Of a stretch of 35,312 nucleotides of DNA, positions 14,943 to 23,333 are shown one piece after another. The notes under the pieces were generated by a model. That model had not been told where the DNA came from. It saw nothing but the letters and a program-made list of their open reading frames with translations, and did not search any database. Location of the stretch: assembly GCA_002254825.2 (NCBI GenBank), contig NJEL02000002.1:1-35312 (forward strand). Direction: 5' to 3'. Origin of the DNA: Methanosarcinales archaeon ex4572_44 (GTDB taxonomy: Archaea; Halobacteriota; Methanosarcinia; Methanosarcinales; EX4572-44). The first letter of the stretch is position 1. Each line of letters begins with the position of its first letter. The position numbers were made by a program, and so were the translations under genes.

Positions 14943-14973
14943 AAAATCGTAGAGAGCCACTCTCTACGATTTT
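14943..14973. terminator. perfect 14-bp stem / 3-nt loop hairpin between convergent secY and the glycosyltransferase gene; possible bidirectional terminator
   Basis: AAAATCGTAGAGAG-cca-CTCTCTACGATTTT. The A/T runs at both ends give U-tracts on either transcript. It begins 1 nt after the secY stop, and its right arm overlaps the last codons of the minus-strand gene. Confidence 0.5.
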
Positions 14974-16199
14974 GGGGGGTATTTGTAGAAGAGTGTTATG
15001 CCATATTCGTCTGGTGGGTTTTTCATCTCTCTCCATAGTATGTATTCTGGTGTTATGTCTTTTGTTTTGAACCAGTACCAATTCATTTTGGCGCTGTCAA
15101 GTCGCTGGTATTGGTTGCTCAGTTTGTTCTGTACTTTTGGCGCGTCTGTGTCGTGGACTACGATCAATGGCGCGTTCAGTTGTGAGTCAGTTTTTACTTT
15201 CCAGCGTATGTTTTCATAATGACGTAGGTACCAGAGGAATTGTGTTTCGATCGCGGTGTCGGTTACATGGATTTCCGTGTTATATCTGTCCCAGTGGTTC
15301 GCGACTTCATCGATTTTGTCCAGCATTTCTTGGAATTTTTGTGGTGGTTGTGCTGCCTGAATCAGTGGTTCTGCCGGGTCTGTGTAATTGTGGTAGTTGA
15401 GTTGGAGGCTTGAGAAGACAAGCAGTAGGGTGGTCGTGATGAAGATTGCTACGAGTATCTGTCTGGTTTGCGGGTTGTTATTCTGGTGTTTCTGTAGTGT
15501 CTCGTTCAGTGTGGTTGATGCGAGGAGGATCATAGGTAGGAGTATGTGTATTGTGAGCCATGGTACTTTCTCTCCGAGGTAGGAGTATGCTGCAAGGCTT
15601 GTTAGGGTCCAGTAGATTAGGAATATTCTGAATCGGGCTGGTTTCTCTGGTTTTTGGATTGCTCCGATTGCTGCGAAGATCACGATCGGTAGTTCGTACA
15701 GTAATAGGATTGGGATATAGAAGTATGGTGGCCCACTGACGCGTTCTGTGGTGTGCATCCTGTACCAGTGGGTTAAGGCTGATTCAAAGGATGTTGCAAA
15801 GCCATGTGGATTTGAGAAAAAATCTGTGTAGAAGAGTGCATATACTATTAAAAAGGATGCGAGTATCGTTATTGTTGCTTGGTGGTGTTTTTTGATAGAT
15901 CTCCATGGTTGCAGTGGTTTTTTTGATATAATGTCCAGCAGGCATATGAGTGCGAGGTAGGATGTAAAGATCGCTATGTAGATGTACGTGTTCTCCTTTG
16001 CTGATGCAGAAAGCCCAAAGAATATTCCCGCACCAGCTGCAAAGAAGAGATTTCTTTTATCGTTGTATTTCAGGATACAGATTATGGCTGCAAGCATGAA
16101 GAAGGCTACAAACATGTCGTTTCTGAAGAAACGAGAGTAATAAAGGAAGGATGGTGATATGGCAAGGAAGAAGGCTGCAATGATTGCACCGCGCCTCAA
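14964..16199 (-). CDS. polytopic membrane protein, GT-C/PMT_2-like glycosyltransferase family (TIGR03663-like); apparently lacks the usual N-terminal ~100 aa
   Basis: The 411-aa product is multi-TM. Its N-terminus AISPSFLYYSRFFRNDMFVAFF resembles the internal conserved block of this family. Only a TTG start is available, with an in-frame stop 8 codons upstream. A soluble C-terminal domain is present. Confidence 0.6.
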   Translation of the reverse strand: MRRGAIIAAFFLAISPSFLYYSRFFRNDMFVAFFMLAAIICILKYNDKRNLFFAAGAGIFFGLSASAKENTYIYIAIFTSYLALICLLDIISKKPLQPWRSIKKHHQATITILASFLIVYALFYTDFFSNPHGFATSFESALTHWYRMHTTERVSGPPYFYIPILLLYELPIVIFAAIGAIQKPEKPARFRIFLIYWTLTSLAAYSYLGEKVPWLTIHILLPMILLASTTLNETLQKHQNNNPQTRQILVAIFITTTLLLVFSSLQLNYHNYTDPAEPLIQAAQPPQKFQEMLDKIDEVANHWDRYNTEIHVTDTAIETQFLWYLRHYENIRWKVKTDSQLNAPLIVVHDTDAPKVQNKLSNQYQRLDSAKMNWYWFKTKDITPEYILWREMKNPPDEYGITLFYKYPPKS

Positions 16200-16328
16200 A
16201 GAGGGCGAGTGTGATGATCTCTATCTGTACACGGTACTTGGTCAGTGGTTGCATTATCTAACACCGTCTGCTCGTGTTATGGTGGTCATGTAGATGGTTA
16301 TATATGTTGTTGTTAGAGTTATATCTGT

Positions 16329-18350
16329 ATGCGTGAAATTCCGGTTGGTAATGGCAGATTGCTTGTAAACTTTGATGCTGATTATCAGATCCGTGACATC
16401 TATTATCCTCATGTCGGTCTTGAGAATCATGGTGTTGGTTTTCCGTTCCGCTTCGGTCTATGGGTGGACGGTGATTTTTCGTGGATGGGGGATGAGTGGG
16501 AGAAGAGTTTGAAGTATCTCCCTGAGACCCTTGTGACCGATGTGAGACTTGTGAATAGAAGGCTTGGAATTGAGTTATTGTGCAATGACGTGGTCGATAT
16601 CGGGAGGGATATTTACATCCGTCAGATCAGAGTGGTTAACGAGCGGGATGAACTTCGGGAGGTGCGGTTGTTCTTCCATCAGGATTTTAGGATTATGGAA
16701 AATGCTGTTGGAGATACTGCAAGTTATGATCCTGGCACCGGCAGCGTGATTCATTATAAGGGCAAGAGATATTTTCTCGTCAGTGCTATTCGTGATGGTA
16801 AAAAAGGTGTTGATCAGTTTGCCACAGGTTTCAAGCAGTTTCACAATTTTGAAGGCACTTGGAAGGATGCTGAGGATGGTGTGCTCAGCAGGGGTCCAAT
16901 TGCACAGGGTTCTGTCGATTCCACGGTTGGTGTGAACCTTGTGCTTGATCCTCGTGGCGAGAAGGCAGTGTATTATATCATTGCTGTTGGGCGTGATTAT
17001 GGTACGGTTAGGGAGGGGTATTATTATCTGCTAGACCGTACACCGAGTTATTTCATACACCGCACAGAGAACTACTGGAAGAGGTGGGTGAACAAGACCG
17101 ATTTCAACTTCACGAACCTGCCTCCTCCAATTGTCGAGTTTTTTAAGAAGAGTCTTTTAATCCTCAGAACCCAGGTTGATGAGGGCGGTGCGATCATCGC
17201 AGCCAACGATACCGATATTCTCCAATTTGGTCGTGACACGTACAGTTACATGTGGCCAAGGGATGGTGCACTTGTGGCTTACGGGCTTGGTCTTTCGAAC
17301 AATCCTGCTATTGCAGAGCGTTTCTTCACATTCTGTTCAGGCATTCTGATGCATATCGGGTATCTCTTTCACAAGTACAATCCGGACGGGTCTATCGGGA
17401 GTTCCTGGCATCCTTGGATCATAGATGGTAGGAGGGTGCTTCCAATTCAAGAAGATGAGACTGCACTTGTGATCTGGGCATTGTGGGAGCATTTCGAGCG
17501 TTTTCGAAATATCGACTTTATTCGCTCGATCTATCATCCGTTGATCACGCAGGCTTCCGATTTCATGGTGAAGTATCGGGATAACGAGACAGGTCTCCCT
17601 GATCAGTCGTATGATCTCTGGGAGGAGCGGCGTGGCATTCACACCTTCACAACCTCTGCCGTCTACGGTGGCCTGATTGCAGCCGCTCGCTTTGCCGAGC
17701 TCTTCCATGACACCAGTGCCTGCAGGGAATACAATGCTGCAGCCCGTGAGATCAGATCTGGGTTGGAGCGGTATCTTTACAGTGAGGAGCTTAGGCGTTT
17801 TGTTCGAAGGATTGTTCCGAAGGGGTATGATGTTGATGGCGGTTTTGAGGTGGACGAGACCATTGATGCAAGCCTCTATGGAATATTTAAGTTCGGGGTC
17901 TTCAAGCCTGATGACCCGCGTGTGATCGATACCATGAAGACCATTGAAGATCGGCTCTGGGTCAAGAGTGATGTTGGTGGTGTTGCCCGTTACGAGGACG
18001 ATTATTATCACCGAGTTAGTAAGGATATAGCGAATGTACCAGGTAATCCATGGTTCATCTGCACGCTCTGGCTTGCACAGCATCGTATTGCAGTGGCACG
18101 CACGGTGAAAGAGTTAAAACTGGCAATCCCGCTCATGGAGTGGGTTGTTAGGCATGCCACGCCTTCGGGTGTTCTGGCTGAGCAGTTGGACCCTTATACT
18201 GGTGAACCGCTTTCGGTAAGCCCGCTCACGTGGAGCCATGGAGAGTTTGTAGCGACCGTGATGGAGTTTATTGAGAAGACAAAAAATCTGACCGTTTCAG
18301 CCGTCCTTGAATCGTATCATCTTGGTAGCGCTAAAAAGCGAAGTCCTTGA
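16329..18350 (+). CDS. glycoside hydrolase family 15 (glucoamylase / glucodextranase / trehalase type)
   Basis: 673 aa with an N-terminal beta-sandwich plus (alpha/alpha)6 catalytic domain. Motifs: YSYMWPRDGA, YDLWEERRGIHTFT (catalytic acid region), PWFICTLWLAQ, LAEQLDPYTGEPLSVSPLTWSH. Confidence 0.85.
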   Translation: MREIPVGNGRLLVNFDADYQIRDIYYPHVGLENHGVGFPFRFGLWVDGDFSWMGDEWEKSLKYLPETLVTDVRLVNRRLGIELLCNDVVDIGRDIYIRQIRVVNERDELREVRLFFHQDFRIMENAVGDTASYDPGTGSVIHYKGKRYFLVSAIRDGKKGVDQFATGFKQFHNFEGTWKDAEDGVLSRGPIAQGSVDSTVGVNLVLDPRGEKAVYYIIAVGRDYGTVREGYYYLLDRTPSYFIHRTENYWKRWVNKTDFNFTNLPPPIVEFFKKSLLILRTQVDEGGAIIAANDTDILQFGRDTYSYMWPRDGALVAYGLGLSNNPAIAERFFTFCSGILMHIGYLFHKYNPDGSIGSSWHPWIIDGRRVLPIQEDETALVIWALWEHFERFRNIDFIRSIYHPLITQASDFMVKYRDNETGLPDQSYDLWEERRGIHTFTTSAVYGGLIAAARFAELFHDTSACREYNAAAREIRSGLERYLYSEELRRFVRRIVPKGYDVDGGFEVDETIDASLYGIFKFGVFKPDDPRVIDTMKTIEDRLWVKSDVGGVARYEDDYYHRVSKDIANVPGNPWFICTLWLAQHRIAVARTVKELKLAIPLMEWVVRHATPSGVLAEQLDPYTGEPLSVSPLTWSHGEFVATVMEFIEKTKNLTVSAVLESYHLGSAKKRSP

Positions 18351-19422
18351 GTTCGTTGTATCGTTCGTAAACGAGTTCTTTGAATTTTTCAGGTTTTGCT
18401 CTGATGAGCGCTGCAAGCTCGAAGTCGCCGAGGTACTCTAACCATTTGATGATCCACCCAATCTCCTCTCCCTTGATCTCGTTGAGGTGTTCAATCAGTC
18501 CCTGCAACCCGTTACAGACTCTGTTTAGTGCGCAGTAGCCTTCTTTTCCCTCACCAAGTATTATTCTCCGTGCAATCTTGCATCGATGCACTGCTTCCTC
18601 TTTTGTGATCCAGTCAAGGTCACGACAGTTCCTGAAGCCCTTGAGCTGGTGTATCGTCTCTATGCTTTTTGCAGCCCTCCCTGCGAGTTCGAGCAGCATT
18701 TCGTTGTCCAACCCCGAGAGTGCGTAAGGTGTCTCATAGTAGCATTCGATAGCACCGATCACAGAGTTCTCTGCAATGAGGGGTATCCCAATTGCAGATG
18801 ATGGTGTTGTGCCGTTTTTGATCGTTGAAACACCTGTCCGTTTGGAAACATCCTCTGGTGTGATTGCAATCTTGATCTCAGCATGTCTGAGAGCATCTCC
18901 CACAAGTGTCTCATGCGTGCTGAGATCGATGGGCAGTACATCTCCTGCCACGTTCTCTGTGTATACTGGCGTGAGATGTGAGTCTTTCAGGAGGTAGATT
19001 ATGATTGCCTCGGATCCTGCAGTCTTCTGGATCAGGCTTGATATTATCTCTATGGTTTTATCAAGGTTCAGACATGCTATGAGAGCGTCTCCTGTCTCTC
19101 TGATTGCATCCCGTAGTTCCATTCCTGTTCGCTCCCACATCTCGAAGTATTCTTTGTAGACGAGGCTGAAATTCATTATGAATTCGAGGAAGAAGACCGA
19201 TGATTTTGAGACTATGAGTGGTATCTCTTGGAATGGTACCTCCTCTGTGAGCTTGCCGAGGGCATCGGTATGCACTGCTGTTATTTCTTCGAGACCAGTC
19301 TTCTCACGTATGCACTCTCTACTGAACTCATAGGCGTTGTAGAGAGCGGTCTCATCATCTCCTCCGAATAGGTACTCGTTGAGCAGTTCTGTATATGTCT
19401 CTTCAAGTTTTTCAGGAGTCAC
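18331..19422 (-). CDS. RsbU_N-like docking domain + GAF domain + Cys-containing C-terminal domain protein (putative output of the stressosome-like operon)
   Basis: The N-terminus YTELLNEYLFGGDDETALYNAYEFSRECIREKTGLEEITAVHTDALGKL parallels the N-terminal RsbT-binding domain of B. subtilis RsbU (recalled sequence). The central part has a GAF pattern (SAIGIPLIAENSVIGAIECYY...LLELAGRAAKSIE). The GTG start overlaps the upstream stop (GTGA). Confidence 0.65.
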   Translation of the reverse strand: MTPEKLEETYTELLNEYLFGGDDETALYNAYEFSRECIREKTGLEEITAVHTDALGKLTEEVPFQEIPLIVSKSSVFFLEFIMNFSLVYKEYFEMWERTGMELRDAIRETGDALIACLNLDKTIEIISSLIQKTAGSEAIIIYLLKDSHLTPVYTENVAGDVLPIDLSTHETLVGDALRHAEIKIAITPEDVSKRTGVSTIKNGTTPSSAIGIPLIAENSVIGAIECYYETPYALSGLDNEMLLELAGRAAKSIETIHQLKGFRNCRDLDWITKEEAVHRCKIARRIILGEGKEGYCALNRVCNGLQGLIEHLNEIKGEEIGWIIKWLEYLGDFELAALIRAKPEKFKELVYERYNELKDFAF

Positions 19423-20018
19423 TCTGATCTCCTCTCGCGTGCCACTACAATGGTTGCATCATCTGTTCCCCGCGCATACTCTCGGAACAACGCATCTGCG
19501 ATCCTCTCTTCATCCTGGCTGCAGAGTCGCAGGAGAAGCTCTCGGTTGATACCTGATCGTATCCCGTCTGAGTGCATCAGTATCAGATCTCCACTGGTGT
19601 AGGGGTATGTGTGCTCTATTACCCTTTGCATGTTGTACCCGATGATTCCACCTGTTGAGATCGGGTAGCTGTTCTCGCTCCCAATTATCCTGGTGGTGAT
19701 ATTCCCAACCCCTGCAAAATGGATCCTACCCTCATCTATTTTTATTATCACTACTGCCATGACAACGCCATCGGTAGCTCTGAGTGCATCATCACACGCA
19801 TAAAAGAGACCCGTCAGGGTGAAATCCTCTCTGGAGCGAATGTAGTCTCTTATTGTCTTCACACAGATAGTTGCAGCCCTTTCTGCATGATCTCCATGCC
19901 CGATGCCATCAATAAGACTGATCAGAATGCCCTGGTTTATCTCTTCCACCAGGTATGCATCGCCGTTTGCGGTGAACCCCTTCTTCGCCCTGCTGATAGC
20001 ACCCACGCCCATTTTCAT
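19419..20018 (-). CDS. stand-alone PP2C-type serine phosphatase, RsbX-like
   Basis: ~199 aa when started at the ATG that overlaps the upstream stop (ATGA at 20015-20018). PP2C/SpoIIE motifs: GDAYLV, LIDGIGHGDHA, MHSDGI, DDATIVV. Same size class as B. subtilis RsbX. Confidence 0.8.
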   Translation of the reverse strand: MKMGVGAISRAKKGFTANGDAYLVEEINQGILISLIDGIGHGDHAERAATICVKTIRDYIRSREDFTLTGLFYACDDALRATDGVVMAVVIIKIDEGRIHFAGVGNITTRIIGSENSYPISTGGIIGYNMQRVIEHTYPYTSGDLILMHSDGIRSGINRELLLRLCSQDEERIADALFREYARGTDDATIVVARERRSE

Positions 20019-20392
20019 CTCAACCACTTTCTGATCCGTACGCATGTTCCATCCTTCCCGGTGTCGATAGAGAGCTCATCCATCATGTGTTCAACACCCA
20101 GTAGCCCGATGCCAAGCCCATGGCTCACGCTCTTATCTCCATTATCTATAATTCCACTGCCCGAGTCCCTGCAGACGATCTCAATCCCCTGCTCGTTGGG
20201 GTGCACCTCAACCGTTCCAGCACCTGCATACTTCACTGCGTTCTCGGCGAGCTCTGAGACGGCAGTTGCGATCCGATGTTGATCATAGATACCAAAACCT
20301 ATTCTCTCTGCAATCTCTATCACACTCTCCCGCATGTTTATGATACCTGCCAGATTCTGGACATGAAAGACTCCCTCTCGCATTGGGCTCAT
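20015..20392 (-). CDS. second RsbT/RsbW-type anti-sigma-factor-like serine kinase (HATPase_c_2)
   Basis: 125 aa from the ATG overlapping the upstream stop. N-box-like VSELAENAVKYAGAG, G-boxes DSGSGI and GLGIGL, C-terminal IRKWL. Paralogous to the preceding gene. Confidence 0.75.
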   Translation of the reverse strand: MSPMREGVFHVQNLAGIINMRESVIEIAERIGFGIYDQHRIATAVSELAENAVKYAGAGTVEVHPNEQGIEIVCRDSGSGIIDNGDKSVSHGLGIGLLGVEHMMDELSIDTGKDGTCVRIRKWLR

Positions 20393-20793
20393 CGTCGTCT
20401 CAGCCATTTTTTGATGGTTATGATGGTTCCCTCACCTGGCTTTGATTTGATCTCAAACTCGTCCATGAGTTGCTTTGCACCAGATAGCCCGAGTCCAAGG
20501 CTGCCTGATGTACTGACCCCGCCTTTGAGCACAAGTCCAATATCCTTTATCCCAGGACCTTCATCTACACATACCACCACGATACCATTCTTATCACCAG
20601 TCTCACTTTGCGCCTTTTCAATTGTCACCTCTCCCTTGCCTGCATAGGTTACGATATTTCTTGTGAGTTCAGAGATGGCGGTGGTGATCTTTGTCTGATC
20701 CACCACGTTAAAACCCATTTTCATCGCAAGCTCGCGCCCCTTGCCCCGCGCAGCGATTATATCAGCGCTCGATGCAATATTCACCTTCGTCAT
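20389..20793 (-). CDS. rsbT: RsbT-like serine kinase / switch protein
   Basis: MTKVNIASSADIIAARGKGRELAMKMGFNVVDQTKITTAISELTRNIVTYAGKG...DEGPGI...STSGSLGLGLSGAKQLMDEF...IKKWL is colinear with B. subtilis RsbT (recalled). Start moved to ATG 20793, 15 nt after the rsbS-like stop. Confidence 0.88.
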   Translation of the reverse strand: MTKVNIASSADIIAARGKGRELAMKMGFNVVDQTKITTAISELTRNIVTYAGKGEVTIEKAQSETGDKNGIVVVCVDEGPGIKDIGLVLKGGVSTSGSLGLGLSGAKQLMDEFEIKSKPGEGTIITIKKWLRRR

Positions 20794-20807
20794 CTCCTCA
20801 TCTTCGC

Positions 20808-21188
20808 TCACGACACACCACCACGTTGCTCCGCCCCAATGAGTTGTTTCAACAGCTTCCTCCCCCTCTCGAGGTTGAGAGCAGTGTTCACGTTCCACTT
20901 GACACGTATCCCGAGTTCAACGAGGGTTACTGCAACAGCAGGTCGGATTCCCACAACAACCGTTTTTGCACCGAGCAGTTCTGCTGTTGCTGCAACATTT
21001 GAAAGGGTTCTACCCATAAAACTATCCACAATATCGAGGGCTGTGATATCGATTATCAACCCTGTGGCTCCAACATCCTTGATCCTGAGCAGTATATCTT
21101 CCTGCAGCTTGGATATCTCATCGTCAGAGAGCTCTGACTGGATCGTTACCACAAGGAAATCCTCAATCTTCAGTATAGGAATATCCAA
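20808..21188 (-). CDS. rsbS: RsbS-like single-STAS stressosome scaffold protein
   Basis: MDIPILKIEDFLVVTIQSELSDDEISKLQEDILLRIKDVGATGLIIDITALDIVDSFMGRTL...GAKTVVVGIRPAVAVTLVELGI is near-colinear with B. subtilis RsbS, including the phospho-serine context (DSF). Confidence 0.9.
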   Translation of the reverse strand: MDIPILKIEDFLVVTIQSELSDDEISKLQEDILLRIKDVGATGLIIDITALDIVDSFMGRTLSNVAATAELLGAKTVVVGIRPAVAVTLVELGIRVKWNVNTALNLERGRKLLKQLIGAEQRGGVS

Positions 21189-21203
21189 GAAAAATCCCTC
21201 TCT

Positions 21204-22046
21204 TCATCTATCTTCTATCCTCACTTTAAACCCAAGCATCTTGTCAGCGTGCCAGAGACCTGCACGCAGGTTGTTCTTCGTTATCAGCATCGAGATATCG
21301 ATCCCGAGACCTGCAAGCGTCTGTGCGTTAGCCGGGCTTATGCCTGTTATGATCGTATCTGCACCGAGCATCTTTGCAGCATGCACCGTCTTTATCATGT
21401 GGTTTGCTACCAGACTGTCAATTATTGGAACGCCTGTAAGATCGATTATCACAACCGACGCCTCAACTTCAACGATCCTATCCAACAACTCTTCCAAGAT
21501 CTGCTCCGCCCTTTCAGAATCGACGGTTCCGATCAATGGAAGCACCAGTATCTCCTCGCGTATCTGCAGGACTGGGGTGGAGAGGCTCATCATGGCTCTC
21601 TGCTGTTCGTGTATCACACGCTCCCGTTCCTCAACAAAAGCCATTGTCACAATGGTGAGGATATTATTTGCAATGGGTTCATACGAGTCGAGCAGTTGAT
21701 AGAGCTTCTCCTCATCATCCCGATACTTTGAGAAGATGAAACGCTCATAGATATCTCGAAGTTTGAGAATCCCACCGATTATTCTCTCAACGCTCATATC
21801 ATGCATCACTGCTTCTTCGGTTATTATTTTTGCATATTTTTCAACATCTTCAAATTCGCCAGTTCTGAAGGTTGAGACCACAGTGTTGTAGAGAGCAGTG
21901 TACCGCGCCTCTGTCTCAACATCACTCATCTGTTCAAGAAGACCTGATTCTCGCATCTCGGTTATCCACTGTCCCTTCAACTGATCTGCATGATCCTCAA
22001 AGAGAGCGCTCAACTCTCTTTCCAAATTTTGACTCATACCGCTCAC
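21204..22046 (-). CDS. rsbR: RsbR-like stressosome sensor protein (helical N-terminal sensor domain + C-terminal STAS)
   Basis: C-terminus: LPLIGTVDSERAEQILEELL...VIIDLTGVPIIDSLVANH...ITGISPANAQTLAGLGID. It matches the RsbRA STAS domain, with Ser/Thr at both phospho-acceptor positions. Start is GTG 22046 or ATG 22037. Confidence 0.85.
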   Translation of the reverse strand: MSGMSQNLERELSALFEDHADQLKGQWITEMRESGLLEQMSDVETEARYTALYNTVVSTFRTGEFEDVEKYAKIITEEAVMHDMSVERIIGGILKLRDIYERFIFSKYRDDEEKLYQLLDSYEPIANNILTIVTMAFVEERERVIHEQQRAMMSLSTPVLQIREEILVLPLIGTVDSERAEQILEELLDRIVEVEASVVIIDLTGVPIIDSLVANHMIKTVHAAKMLGADTIITGISPANAQTLAGLGIDISMLITKNNLRAGLWHADKMLGFKVRIEDR

Positions 22047-22820: not shown

Positions 22821-23333
22821 CTATATGTTGAATATTTTTCGTGCGTTTTCGGTGGTTTTCTGTGCTATTTTCTCGAAGTTTGTCTCTTTTATGTTGGCTA
22901 TGGTTGTAATTGCATCCACTATGAAGGCTGGCTCGTTCCTTCCGCGGCGGGGTGAGAGGTATGGCGAATCGGTCTCAACGAGCAATCGGTCGAGCGGGAC
23001 TTCGCGTGCGAGGTCTCTGTGGTGTTGTGAGAAGCAGACGAGTGTTGCGAGCGAGATGTAGAAGCCGTGGTCGAGTATCTCGTTCATCGTCTCGATGCTT
23101 CCGCCGTAGCAGTGGAATACTACGCTATCACAGTTCTCTACTATTTTTAGTGCTTTTTCTTCTGCATCTCTTGCGTGGAGTATCACGGCTCCCTCAAAGG
23201 TGGTTGTTATCCCTGAGGTTATAATCTCGCTCACACCACTTCTCCCTGCTCTACTCAGGGCATCGCCTCTATCTGAGTTGAACTGTGGAAAGTTGATGTG
23301 ACAGTGTGAGTCAATTATCAGAGGGTTTCTCAT
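22821..23333 (-). CDS. TatD-family metal-dependent hydrolase, unusually short (internal segment missing)
   Basis: IIDSHCH (HxH), ILHARDA, VFHCYGG and LLVETDSPYL motifs are present, but the product is only 170 aa. The ATG overlaps the upstream gene's stop (ATGA 23330-23333). Confidence 0.75.
   Translation of the reverse strand: MRNPLIIDSHCHINFPQFNSDRGDALSRAGRSGVSEIITSGITTTFEGAVILHARDAEEKALKIVENCDSVVFHCYGGSIETMNEILDHGFYISLATLVCFSQHHRDLAREVPLDRLLVETDSPYLSPRRGRNEPAFIVDAITTIANIKETNFEKIAQKTTENARKIFNI

Follow-up and report, generated by a model that had tools for sequence, protein, structure and literature searches.

Known stressosome outputs include PP2C phosphatases together with sigma B, diguanylate cyclases, and histidine kinases. 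Archaea do not have sigma factors, and we know of no archaeal stressosome for which an output has been defined. In Bacillus subtilis, RsbU carries a four-helix N-terminal domain (RsbU_N; structures 1W53 and 2J6Y-2J70) that binds RsbT, and a long helical linker connects this domain with a PPM/PP2C output. The RsbU residues that contact RsbT are E24, Y28, I74, and I78 (Hardwick 2007, as summarized in PMC12143880). MtG of Moorella thermoacetica has an RsbU_N-GAF-GGDEF arrangement, for which a coiled-coil linker model was described (PMC12143880); it is encoded downstream of MtR-MtS-MtT-MtX, and RsbU_N and RsbT were reported to control a non-phosphatase output in this system (Quin et al. 2012, as summarized in PMC12143880). 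The use of RsbU_N as a portable docking tag is already known, with rsbRSTX modules accompanied by varied downstream proteins "even in some archaeal species" (PMC9237108), among them RsbU_N histidine kinases (Heinz et al. 2022, PMC9237108). Here, we analyzed a stretch of 35,312 nucleotides from Methanosarcinales archaeon ex4572_44 (contig NJEL02000002.1, hereafter the window), in which the last gene of a stressosome operon (18331..19422, minus strand) encodes a protein of 363 amino acids consisting of RsbU_N, a helical linker, a GAF domain, and an OrfY-like C-terminal domain. The output domain is the novel part of this protein and belongs to an unmodelled family that shows kinship with OrfY/DUF5752 and is associated with genes for sugar storage; alternative outputs tagged with RsbU_N have been described before.

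The gene was delimited from the list of open reading frames (ORFs) and their translations. Among 5.8 billion clustered proteins, only eight homologues, with identities of 61-99%, have the full architecture. The RsbU_N domain, a putative docking site for an RsbT-like kinase, covers residues 9-86 (19165..19398, minus strand) and matches PF08673 of Pfam with an E-value of 8.5e-12 and 45.5 bits against a cut-off of 25.5, which confirms the RsbU-type N-terminal domain that an earlier note on this DNA had proposed for the first 85 or so residues. When we compared the protein with solved structures using phmmer, the first 94 residues aligned with the N-domain of B. subtilis RsbU (2J70/1W53) with an E-value of 2e-6. 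At the RsbT-contact positions, E24 and Y28 are identical, and I74 and I78 are conservatively replaced by L79 and M83, respectively. All four residues (E24, Y28, L79, and M83) are invariant across the orthologues, so that the likeness to the RsbT-binding domain noticed earlier holds at the contact residues as well. We also searched the PDB sequences with both kinases of the operon in order to map the RsbT residues R19, R23, and N24, and no chain matched.

The RsbU_N domain is followed by a long helical linker at about residues 87-117 (19072..19164, minus strand). In the full-length AlphaFold2 model, which is of moderate quality with a predicted local distance difference test score (pLDDT) of 69, a helical N-domain runs through a long helix into the GAF domain and on to a helical C-terminus; a single helix spans residues 64-114, and the confidence is low over residues 86-118. 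By the precedent of RsbU, the linker may serve as a coiled-coil transducer (PMC12143880). The GAF domain occupies residues 118-254 (18661..19071, minus strand) and matches GAF_2 with an E-value of 2.1e-8 and 34.9 bits against a cut-off of 28.6, with further matches to GAF_3 and GAF, and it is modelled as an alpha/beta fold with pLDDT values of 70-88. No PP2C or SpoIIE match was found by Pfam in the 363-residue protein, indicating that it is not an RsbU phosphatase. Together with the separate PP2C gene upstream, these matches bear out the proposal that RsbU_N is here detached from PP2C and joined to GAF and another C-terminal module.

Compared with B. subtilis RsbU, the locus thus shares RsbU_N, the long helical linker, and the co-encoded RsbR, RsbS, and RsbT, whereas the helix of the linker continues into GAF and the OrfY-like domain instead of a PPM/PP2C phosphatase. 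The host differs as well; since it is an archaeon, there is no RsbV, RsbW, or sigma B. The resemblance to Moorella MtG lies in the RsbU_N-GAF front end and in the gene order of R-S-T followed by X and the output (Quin et al. 2012, as described in PMC12143880). However, MtG ends in a diguanylate cyclase, while the archaeal protein ends in a non-catalytic helical domain of about 100 residues and its operon contains an extra RsbT paralogue. The RsbU_N histidine kinases (Heinz et al. 2022, PMC9237108) likewise combine a stressosome module with an RsbU_N-tagged downstream protein, but the 363-residue protein has no HisKA/HATPase_c output.

The C-terminal domain comprises residues 262-363 (18334..18639, minus strand). 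Pfam and NCBIfam gave nothing meaningful for the C-terminal 109 residues or for any of the 44 members of the family to which it belongs. We built a profile of residues 262-363 from the orthologues and searched 1.84 billion representative proteins with HMMER, which revealed 43 relatives. Most of them are stand-alone proteins of 75-170 residues, and the fused ones comprise two proteins with a REC receiver domain (357 and 444 residues), one with PIN_9, and one in which the domain stands at the end of a GT4-type glycosyltransferase. The gene neighbourhoods of the two REC fusions gave no further clue. The source records name the relatives "hypothetical protein", for example Mtc_0556 of Methanocella conradii. 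Mtc_0556-like proteins, which occur in M. conradii and other Halobacteriota, belong to the same domain family as the C-terminal 100 residues (E-values from 1e-15 to 1e-9) and share the invariant W, the L-G-D, and the aromatic positions, but they stand alone with about 100 residues and a basic tail, lie by glycosyltransferase or nucleotidyltransferase genes, and have no signalling domains attached. In the alignment of 44 sequences, the invariant columns L, W, L, G, and D form a WxxW-EYLGD motif, and Y, A, I, F, R, and L are conserved further on. When the domain was modelled with a deeper alignment, AlphaFold2 gave a helix, a beta-hairpin, and four helices with a pLDDT of 87.9 and a predicted template modelling score of 0.76. 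The C-terminal region of about 100 residues is therefore an independent domain. Since it is found behind two unrelated signalling inputs, REC and RsbU_N, we regard it as an output module. One family protein of 349 residues (P0049, seven cluster members) has, in addition to the C-terminal domain, a second internal WEKYLGD motif near residue 112 and may comprise several copies of the domain; no Pfam match was obtained for its N-terminus.

A language-model look-up gave the first, weak pointer to DUF5752, with which three independent comparisons were then consistent. When the family alignment was compared by hhalign with 42 DUF5752 repeats from the genomes, the probability was 91.1% with an E-value of 1e-6 over 64 columns; against a single DUF5752 sequence, it was 2.3% with an E-value of 0.02. 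The hidden Markov model of the family matches DUF5752 regions weakly, at corresponding positions. The fold points in the same direction. Superposition of the domain model on the DUF5752 clusters in the ESM Atlas gave TM scores of 0.66-0.67 and a root-mean-square deviation (rmsd) of 2.5-2.7 Å over 84-85 residues, and in an exhaustive VIA search of 48,161 solved chains, the top match was OrfY of Thermoproteus tenax (4CSO, chain 4cso_A) with a Z-score of 6.5 and an rmsd of 2.3 Å over 72 residues. A Foldseek search of the PDB with the same model gave no match below an E-value of 3, so that the relation to 4CSO is visible only in the VIA search. PscG and FliG, which appeared in a PDB-sequence profile search with the family alignment, were rejected as chance-level matches (E-values of 0.05-0.08).

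The domain shares with T. tenax OrfY and DUF5752 (PF19027) the repeat fold, comprising the hairpin, a helix with x-NL-x-EL, a helix with W...LGD..A, and the final helix. DUF5752 is a tandem of two such repeats, whereas the domain of the 363-residue protein is one repeat, about 20 residues shorter, and is not located next to TreT. Kouril et al. in 2008 reportedly found treT and orfY in one T. tenax operon. Because of the single shorter repeat, the silence of the Pfam model, and the location of TreT elsewhere, we classify the C-terminal domain as a distant superfamily relative of DUF5752/OrfY with a single repeat, and not as a member of DUF5752. The last 100 or so residues, which the earlier note could not assign, can thus be placed in an unmodelled family of remote DUF5752/OrfY kin tied to trehalose and alpha-glucan genes. 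They do not map to a well-known domain of known function, since DUF5752/OrfY has no established function, and literature searches on DUF5752, OrfY, and 4CSO gave no relevant paper.

We then examined the genomic company of these domains, and found that superfamily members nearly always lie next to, or are fused with, enzymes of trehalose and alpha-glucan metabolism. In 10 of 10 loci, drawn from several families of archaea, a two-repeat OrfY homologue lies directly upstream of a TreT-like trehalose synthase gene. One of these pairs is in the genome of the window on another contig (L010:258-2157; G000:C30, about 15117-17016), where a DUF5752/OrfY homologue of 227 residues with two repeats is encoded upstream of and overlapping the TreT-like gene; this protein matches DUF5752 with an E-value of 1.4e-68 and 4CSO with an E-value of 8e-29. 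In the genomes of the window's family, the only superfamily proteins are the RsbU_N-GAF protein and the TreT-linked OrfY. Single DUF5752 repeats are also fused to the C-termini of sugar-1-phosphate nucleotidyltransferases (NTP_transferase with LbH) and of enzymes of glycoside hydrolase family 57 (GH57); examples of GH57 enzymes ending in such a repeat are found at L036:235-1731 and L037:1432-3006. Stand-alone members of the C-terminal domain family occur in 41 of the 401 genomes of the phylum and are concentrated in three families including Methanocellaceae. When we surveyed the neighbours of stand-alone members at 30 loci (L044-L073), 24 abutted a gene for a sugar-1-phosphate nucleotidyltransferase, a glycogen-synthase-like glycosyltransferase, or a glycogen phosphorylase. 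The gene was directly downstream of an NTP_transferase-LbH protein carrying one DUF5752 repeat at 14 loci, beside a glycogen-synthase-like glycosyltransferase (GT5/GT4) at nine, and beside a glycogen phosphorylase fragment at one. The ATG of M. conradii Mtc_0556 (L056:1501-1800) overlaps the end of the upstream glycosyltransferase gene, and in the other loci the frame measured from stop to stop overlaps the gene of the upstream enzyme or borders on it. Since domains of this type are fused to several enzymes of one pathway and the M. conradii gene overlaps an enzyme gene, these observations, together with the position behind REC and RsbU_N, support a role as a protein partner.

Based on these comparisons of sequences and gene neighbourhoods, we tentatively suggest that the 363-residue protein may be a stressosome output adaptor acting on glucan or trehalose enzymes. 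Under stress, one of the two RsbT-like kinases would leave the RsbR/RsbS complex and bind the dimer of RsbU_N and linker, and its binding would change the register or the dimer geometry of the linker and the GAF domain, as in RsbU and Moorella MtG. This change would re-position the two C-terminal OrfY-like domains, which, paired in the dimer, could mimic a two-repeat OrfY. The paired domains would then bind or release a carbohydrate enzyme, for which the OrfY-TreT pair and the convergent amylase of glycoside hydrolase family 15 (GH15) are candidates. The stress signal would in this way act post-translationally on trehalose or glycogen turnover and not on a sigma factor, and resetting of the stressosome would fall to the separate PP2C, in the manner of RsbX. 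TreT uses NDP-glucose and glucose as substrates, and we infer only that the GH15 amylase could supply glucose from glucans for TreT. The more specific version of this proposal, in which RsbT would drive the RsbU_N-GAF dimer to bring two single repeats together as an imitation of OrfY, and direct contact with this pair would turn TreT or GH15 on or off, seems to us rather doubtful. Cultures of Ca. Ethanoperedens accumulate trehalose, which makes up as much as 75% of the extracted metabolites (PMC13597711). Such hoarding makes a control of sugar metabolism plausible, but it is not evidence for such control.

Here, we need to consider several observations that weigh against an adaptor for carbohydrate enzymes. 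The TreT/OrfY pair is not near the stressosome operon, and the convergent GH15 gene is missing in one orthologous locus (L075). Six of the 30 stand-alone loci have no carbohydrate gene within 1.5 kb, and many of the 30 come from related genomes and are not independent counts. PF19027 was not matched at E-values up to 10 by the C-terminal domain or by any of the 44 family members, so that the kinship with DUF5752 rests on profile-profile and fold comparison. When the domains of the family were placed in a tree, those fused to RsbU_N came out on a long branch of their own, outside the clades linked with glycosyltransferases and NTP-transferases, and the deep nodes were weakly supported; since this branch is not nested in the enzyme-linked clades, no enzyme partner can be read from the tree. 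The gene was found in many DNA metagenomes of sediments and vents, while no RNA sequencing run containing it was listed. Finally, the PDB depositors named OrfY (4CSO) a "transcription factor".

This name agrees with the alternative that the C-terminal domain is a DNA-binding output, so that the protein would be a stress-controlled transcription regulator replacing the sigma-factor branch, and the stand-alone members would act as small proteins regulating the sugar genes next to them. The domain also stands behind REC in two protein clusters, and REC outputs are most often DNA-binding; moreover, the stand-alone members often have a basic N-terminal tail, with a median net charge of +1.5 and values up to +9. 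We nevertheless consider this reading unlikely. The net charge of the domain core scatters around zero (median 0, range -9 to +10), with values of -4 to +1 within the clade of RsbU_N-fused domains, and this type of domain is also found at the C-termini of nucleotidyltransferases, GH57 enzymes, and a glycosyltransferase, where DNA-binding domains are not usually located. A separate winged-helix domain (HTH_45) is carried by 12% of the members of one DUF5752 cluster, indicating that DUF5752 itself is not the DNA reader there. No helix-turn-helix (HTH), winged-helix, or zinc-finger structure was among the Foldseek and VIA matches, and no HTH family was found by Pfam or NCBIfam. It is also conceivable, though less so than DNA binding, that the protein is a signal integrator or sink, in which GAF and the OrfY-like domain would bind small molecules such as a sugar, a sugar nucleotide, or glucan ends and set the capture of an RsbT-like kinase by RsbU_N, leaving the second kinase to phosphorylate the real target. 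The protein has no recognizable catalytic or DNA-binding domain, as would be expected of an integrator, and the operon of the window's family has an extra RsbT paralogue that is absent from the one related R-S-T-X operon examined (L078). DUF5752-type repeats on enzymes, and in some proteins on an HTH domain, would fit a ligand-sensing regulatory domain, and one protein encoded in a related genome consists of RsbU_N and four GAF domains without any output domain. However, no ligand is known for any family member and no substrate of the second kinase is encoded nearby, and the fact that stand-alone members are so closely paired with one enzyme gene, in overlapping frames, suggests a protein partner more than a free sensor.

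Another possibility, raised in the earlier note, was that four cysteines make the C-terminal domain a module for metal, redox, or nucleic-acid binding. The cysteines are literally present (C266, C281, C297, and C303, with the spacing CX14CX15CX5C), and C281 and C303 are invariant in the eight orthologues, as is H312. However, C266 is replaced by L, S, or E and C297 by L or H in some orthologues, and the alignment of 44 sequences shows no conservation at any of these four positions. Because of this variation within the orthologues and the lack of any family-wide cysteine position, the "four-cysteine" label is, as judged from the alignments, an accident of one sequence and not a real feature. 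A Cys4 site for zinc or iron was rejected on the same conservation, and the confident helical-bundle-plus-hairpin fold predicted by AlphaFold2 needs no metal site. The domain core is also not consistently basic, and there was no match to an HTH or zinc-finger fold. The Cys4 site is largely refuted by the conservation data, and we regard a Cys4 metal or redox function as highly improbable.

If the protein is indeed a stressosome output adaptor for glucan or trehalose enzymes, a bacterial-type stress sensor would have been re-used in an alkane-oxidizing archaeon to steer a compatible solute or a storage sugar. No archaeal stressosome would have had its output defined before, and the lineage in question is one that reportedly hoards trehalose in culture. 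The DUF5752/OrfY superfamily would receive its first function, namely that of partner subunits regulating the enzymes of glucan and trehalose metabolism. Mtc_0556-like proteins would gain a testable function as well, and a non-catalytic adaptor would join the modules driven by coiled-coil linkers.

The architecture is confined to a narrow group. Each of the five other genomes in the window's family has a full-length orthologue, and a search of 145 genomes from the rest of the order gave none. The closest named orthologue, with 77% identity, comes from a record named "Ca. Methanoperedenaceae archaeon GB37", a genome that we take to belong to the genus Ca. Ethanoperedens, and the family of the window is presumably the Ca. 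Ethanoperedens group. In a related family of the same order, nine genomes match the RsbU_N-GAF part alone (residues 4-262, at 27-30% identity), which is there embedded in proteins of 640-850 residues. We examined the genomic context in two of these nine genomes. In one (L078:3349-10924), an R-S-T-X module is followed by a gene for RsbU_N with four GAF domains, which has no output domain, and then by dCache-GAF and MEDS-histidine-kinase genes. In the other (L077:4848-8221), genes for RsbT and for an RsbU_N protein with two GAF domains, HisKA, and HATPase adjoin a mechanosensitive-channel gene.

The operon itself is encoded on the minus strand and starts with an RsbR-like protein of 280 residues (21204..22046), which has an N-terminal sensor region with a weak match to RsbRD_N and a C-terminal STAS domain (E-value of 4.6e-15). 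It is followed by an RsbS-like single STAS protein of 126 residues (20808..21188; PF01740, E-value of 4.9e-11) and by an RsbT-like switch kinase of 134 residues from the ATG at 20793 (20389..20793), which matches HATPase_c and HATPase_c_2 and shares 52% identity with an RsbT from a related genome, whose gene adjoins that of an RsbU_N-GAF-histidine kinase. The next gene encodes a second RsbT-type kinase of 130 residues (20015..20407; HATPase_c_2, E-value of 1.7e-12), a paralogue that shares 40% identity with the first kinase and 45% with the RsbT of a relative. A single-domain PP2C/SpoIIE phosphatase of 208 residues (19419..20045; PF07228, E-value of 6.6e-10) precedes the gene of the 363-residue protein and is present in all orthologous operons; by position, it is an RsbX-like feedback phosphatase. 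The 363-residue protein starts with GTG, which overlaps the TGA stop codon of the PP2C gene as GTGA. The description of this gene as the terminal, GTGA-coupled member of an RsbR-RsbS-RsbT-kinase 2-PP2C operon is thus confirmed by the domain matches and the overlap of stop and start codons. The order of the six genes is identical in five independent contigs (L001-L003, L075, and L076). The operon region 18331-22046 was also observed as near-identical DNA in at least ten metagenome studies of marine sediments and hydrothermal vents.

A GH15 glycoside hydrolase gene of 673 codons lies convergent to the operon on the plus strand (16329..18350; Glyco_hydro_15, E-value of 1e-30) and overlaps the 3' end of the 363-residue protein gene by 20 nucleotides. 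The nearest NCBIfam model is "oligosaccharide amylase" (TIGR01577) with an E-value of 8e-89, a match below the cut-off of the model, and the match to archaeal GH15 trehalases is weaker. The convergent gene is kept in three of four other lineages (L001/L002, L003, and L076), and it is a possible functional neighbour of the 363-residue protein. Upstream of the operon, a TatD-family ORF (22821-23333, minus strand) has only 170 residues and matches its Pfam profile in two stretches with the middle of the profile skipped. On the other side of GH15, a PMT-type membrane glycosyltransferase ORF (14964-16199, minus strand) has 411 residues compared with 529 in its counterpart in the orthologous locus L001, probably owing to a 5' truncation or a different start. 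The archaeal origin of the window is evident from its genes for SecY with a Sec61 plug, a DUF2113 protein, and a ribosomal protein.

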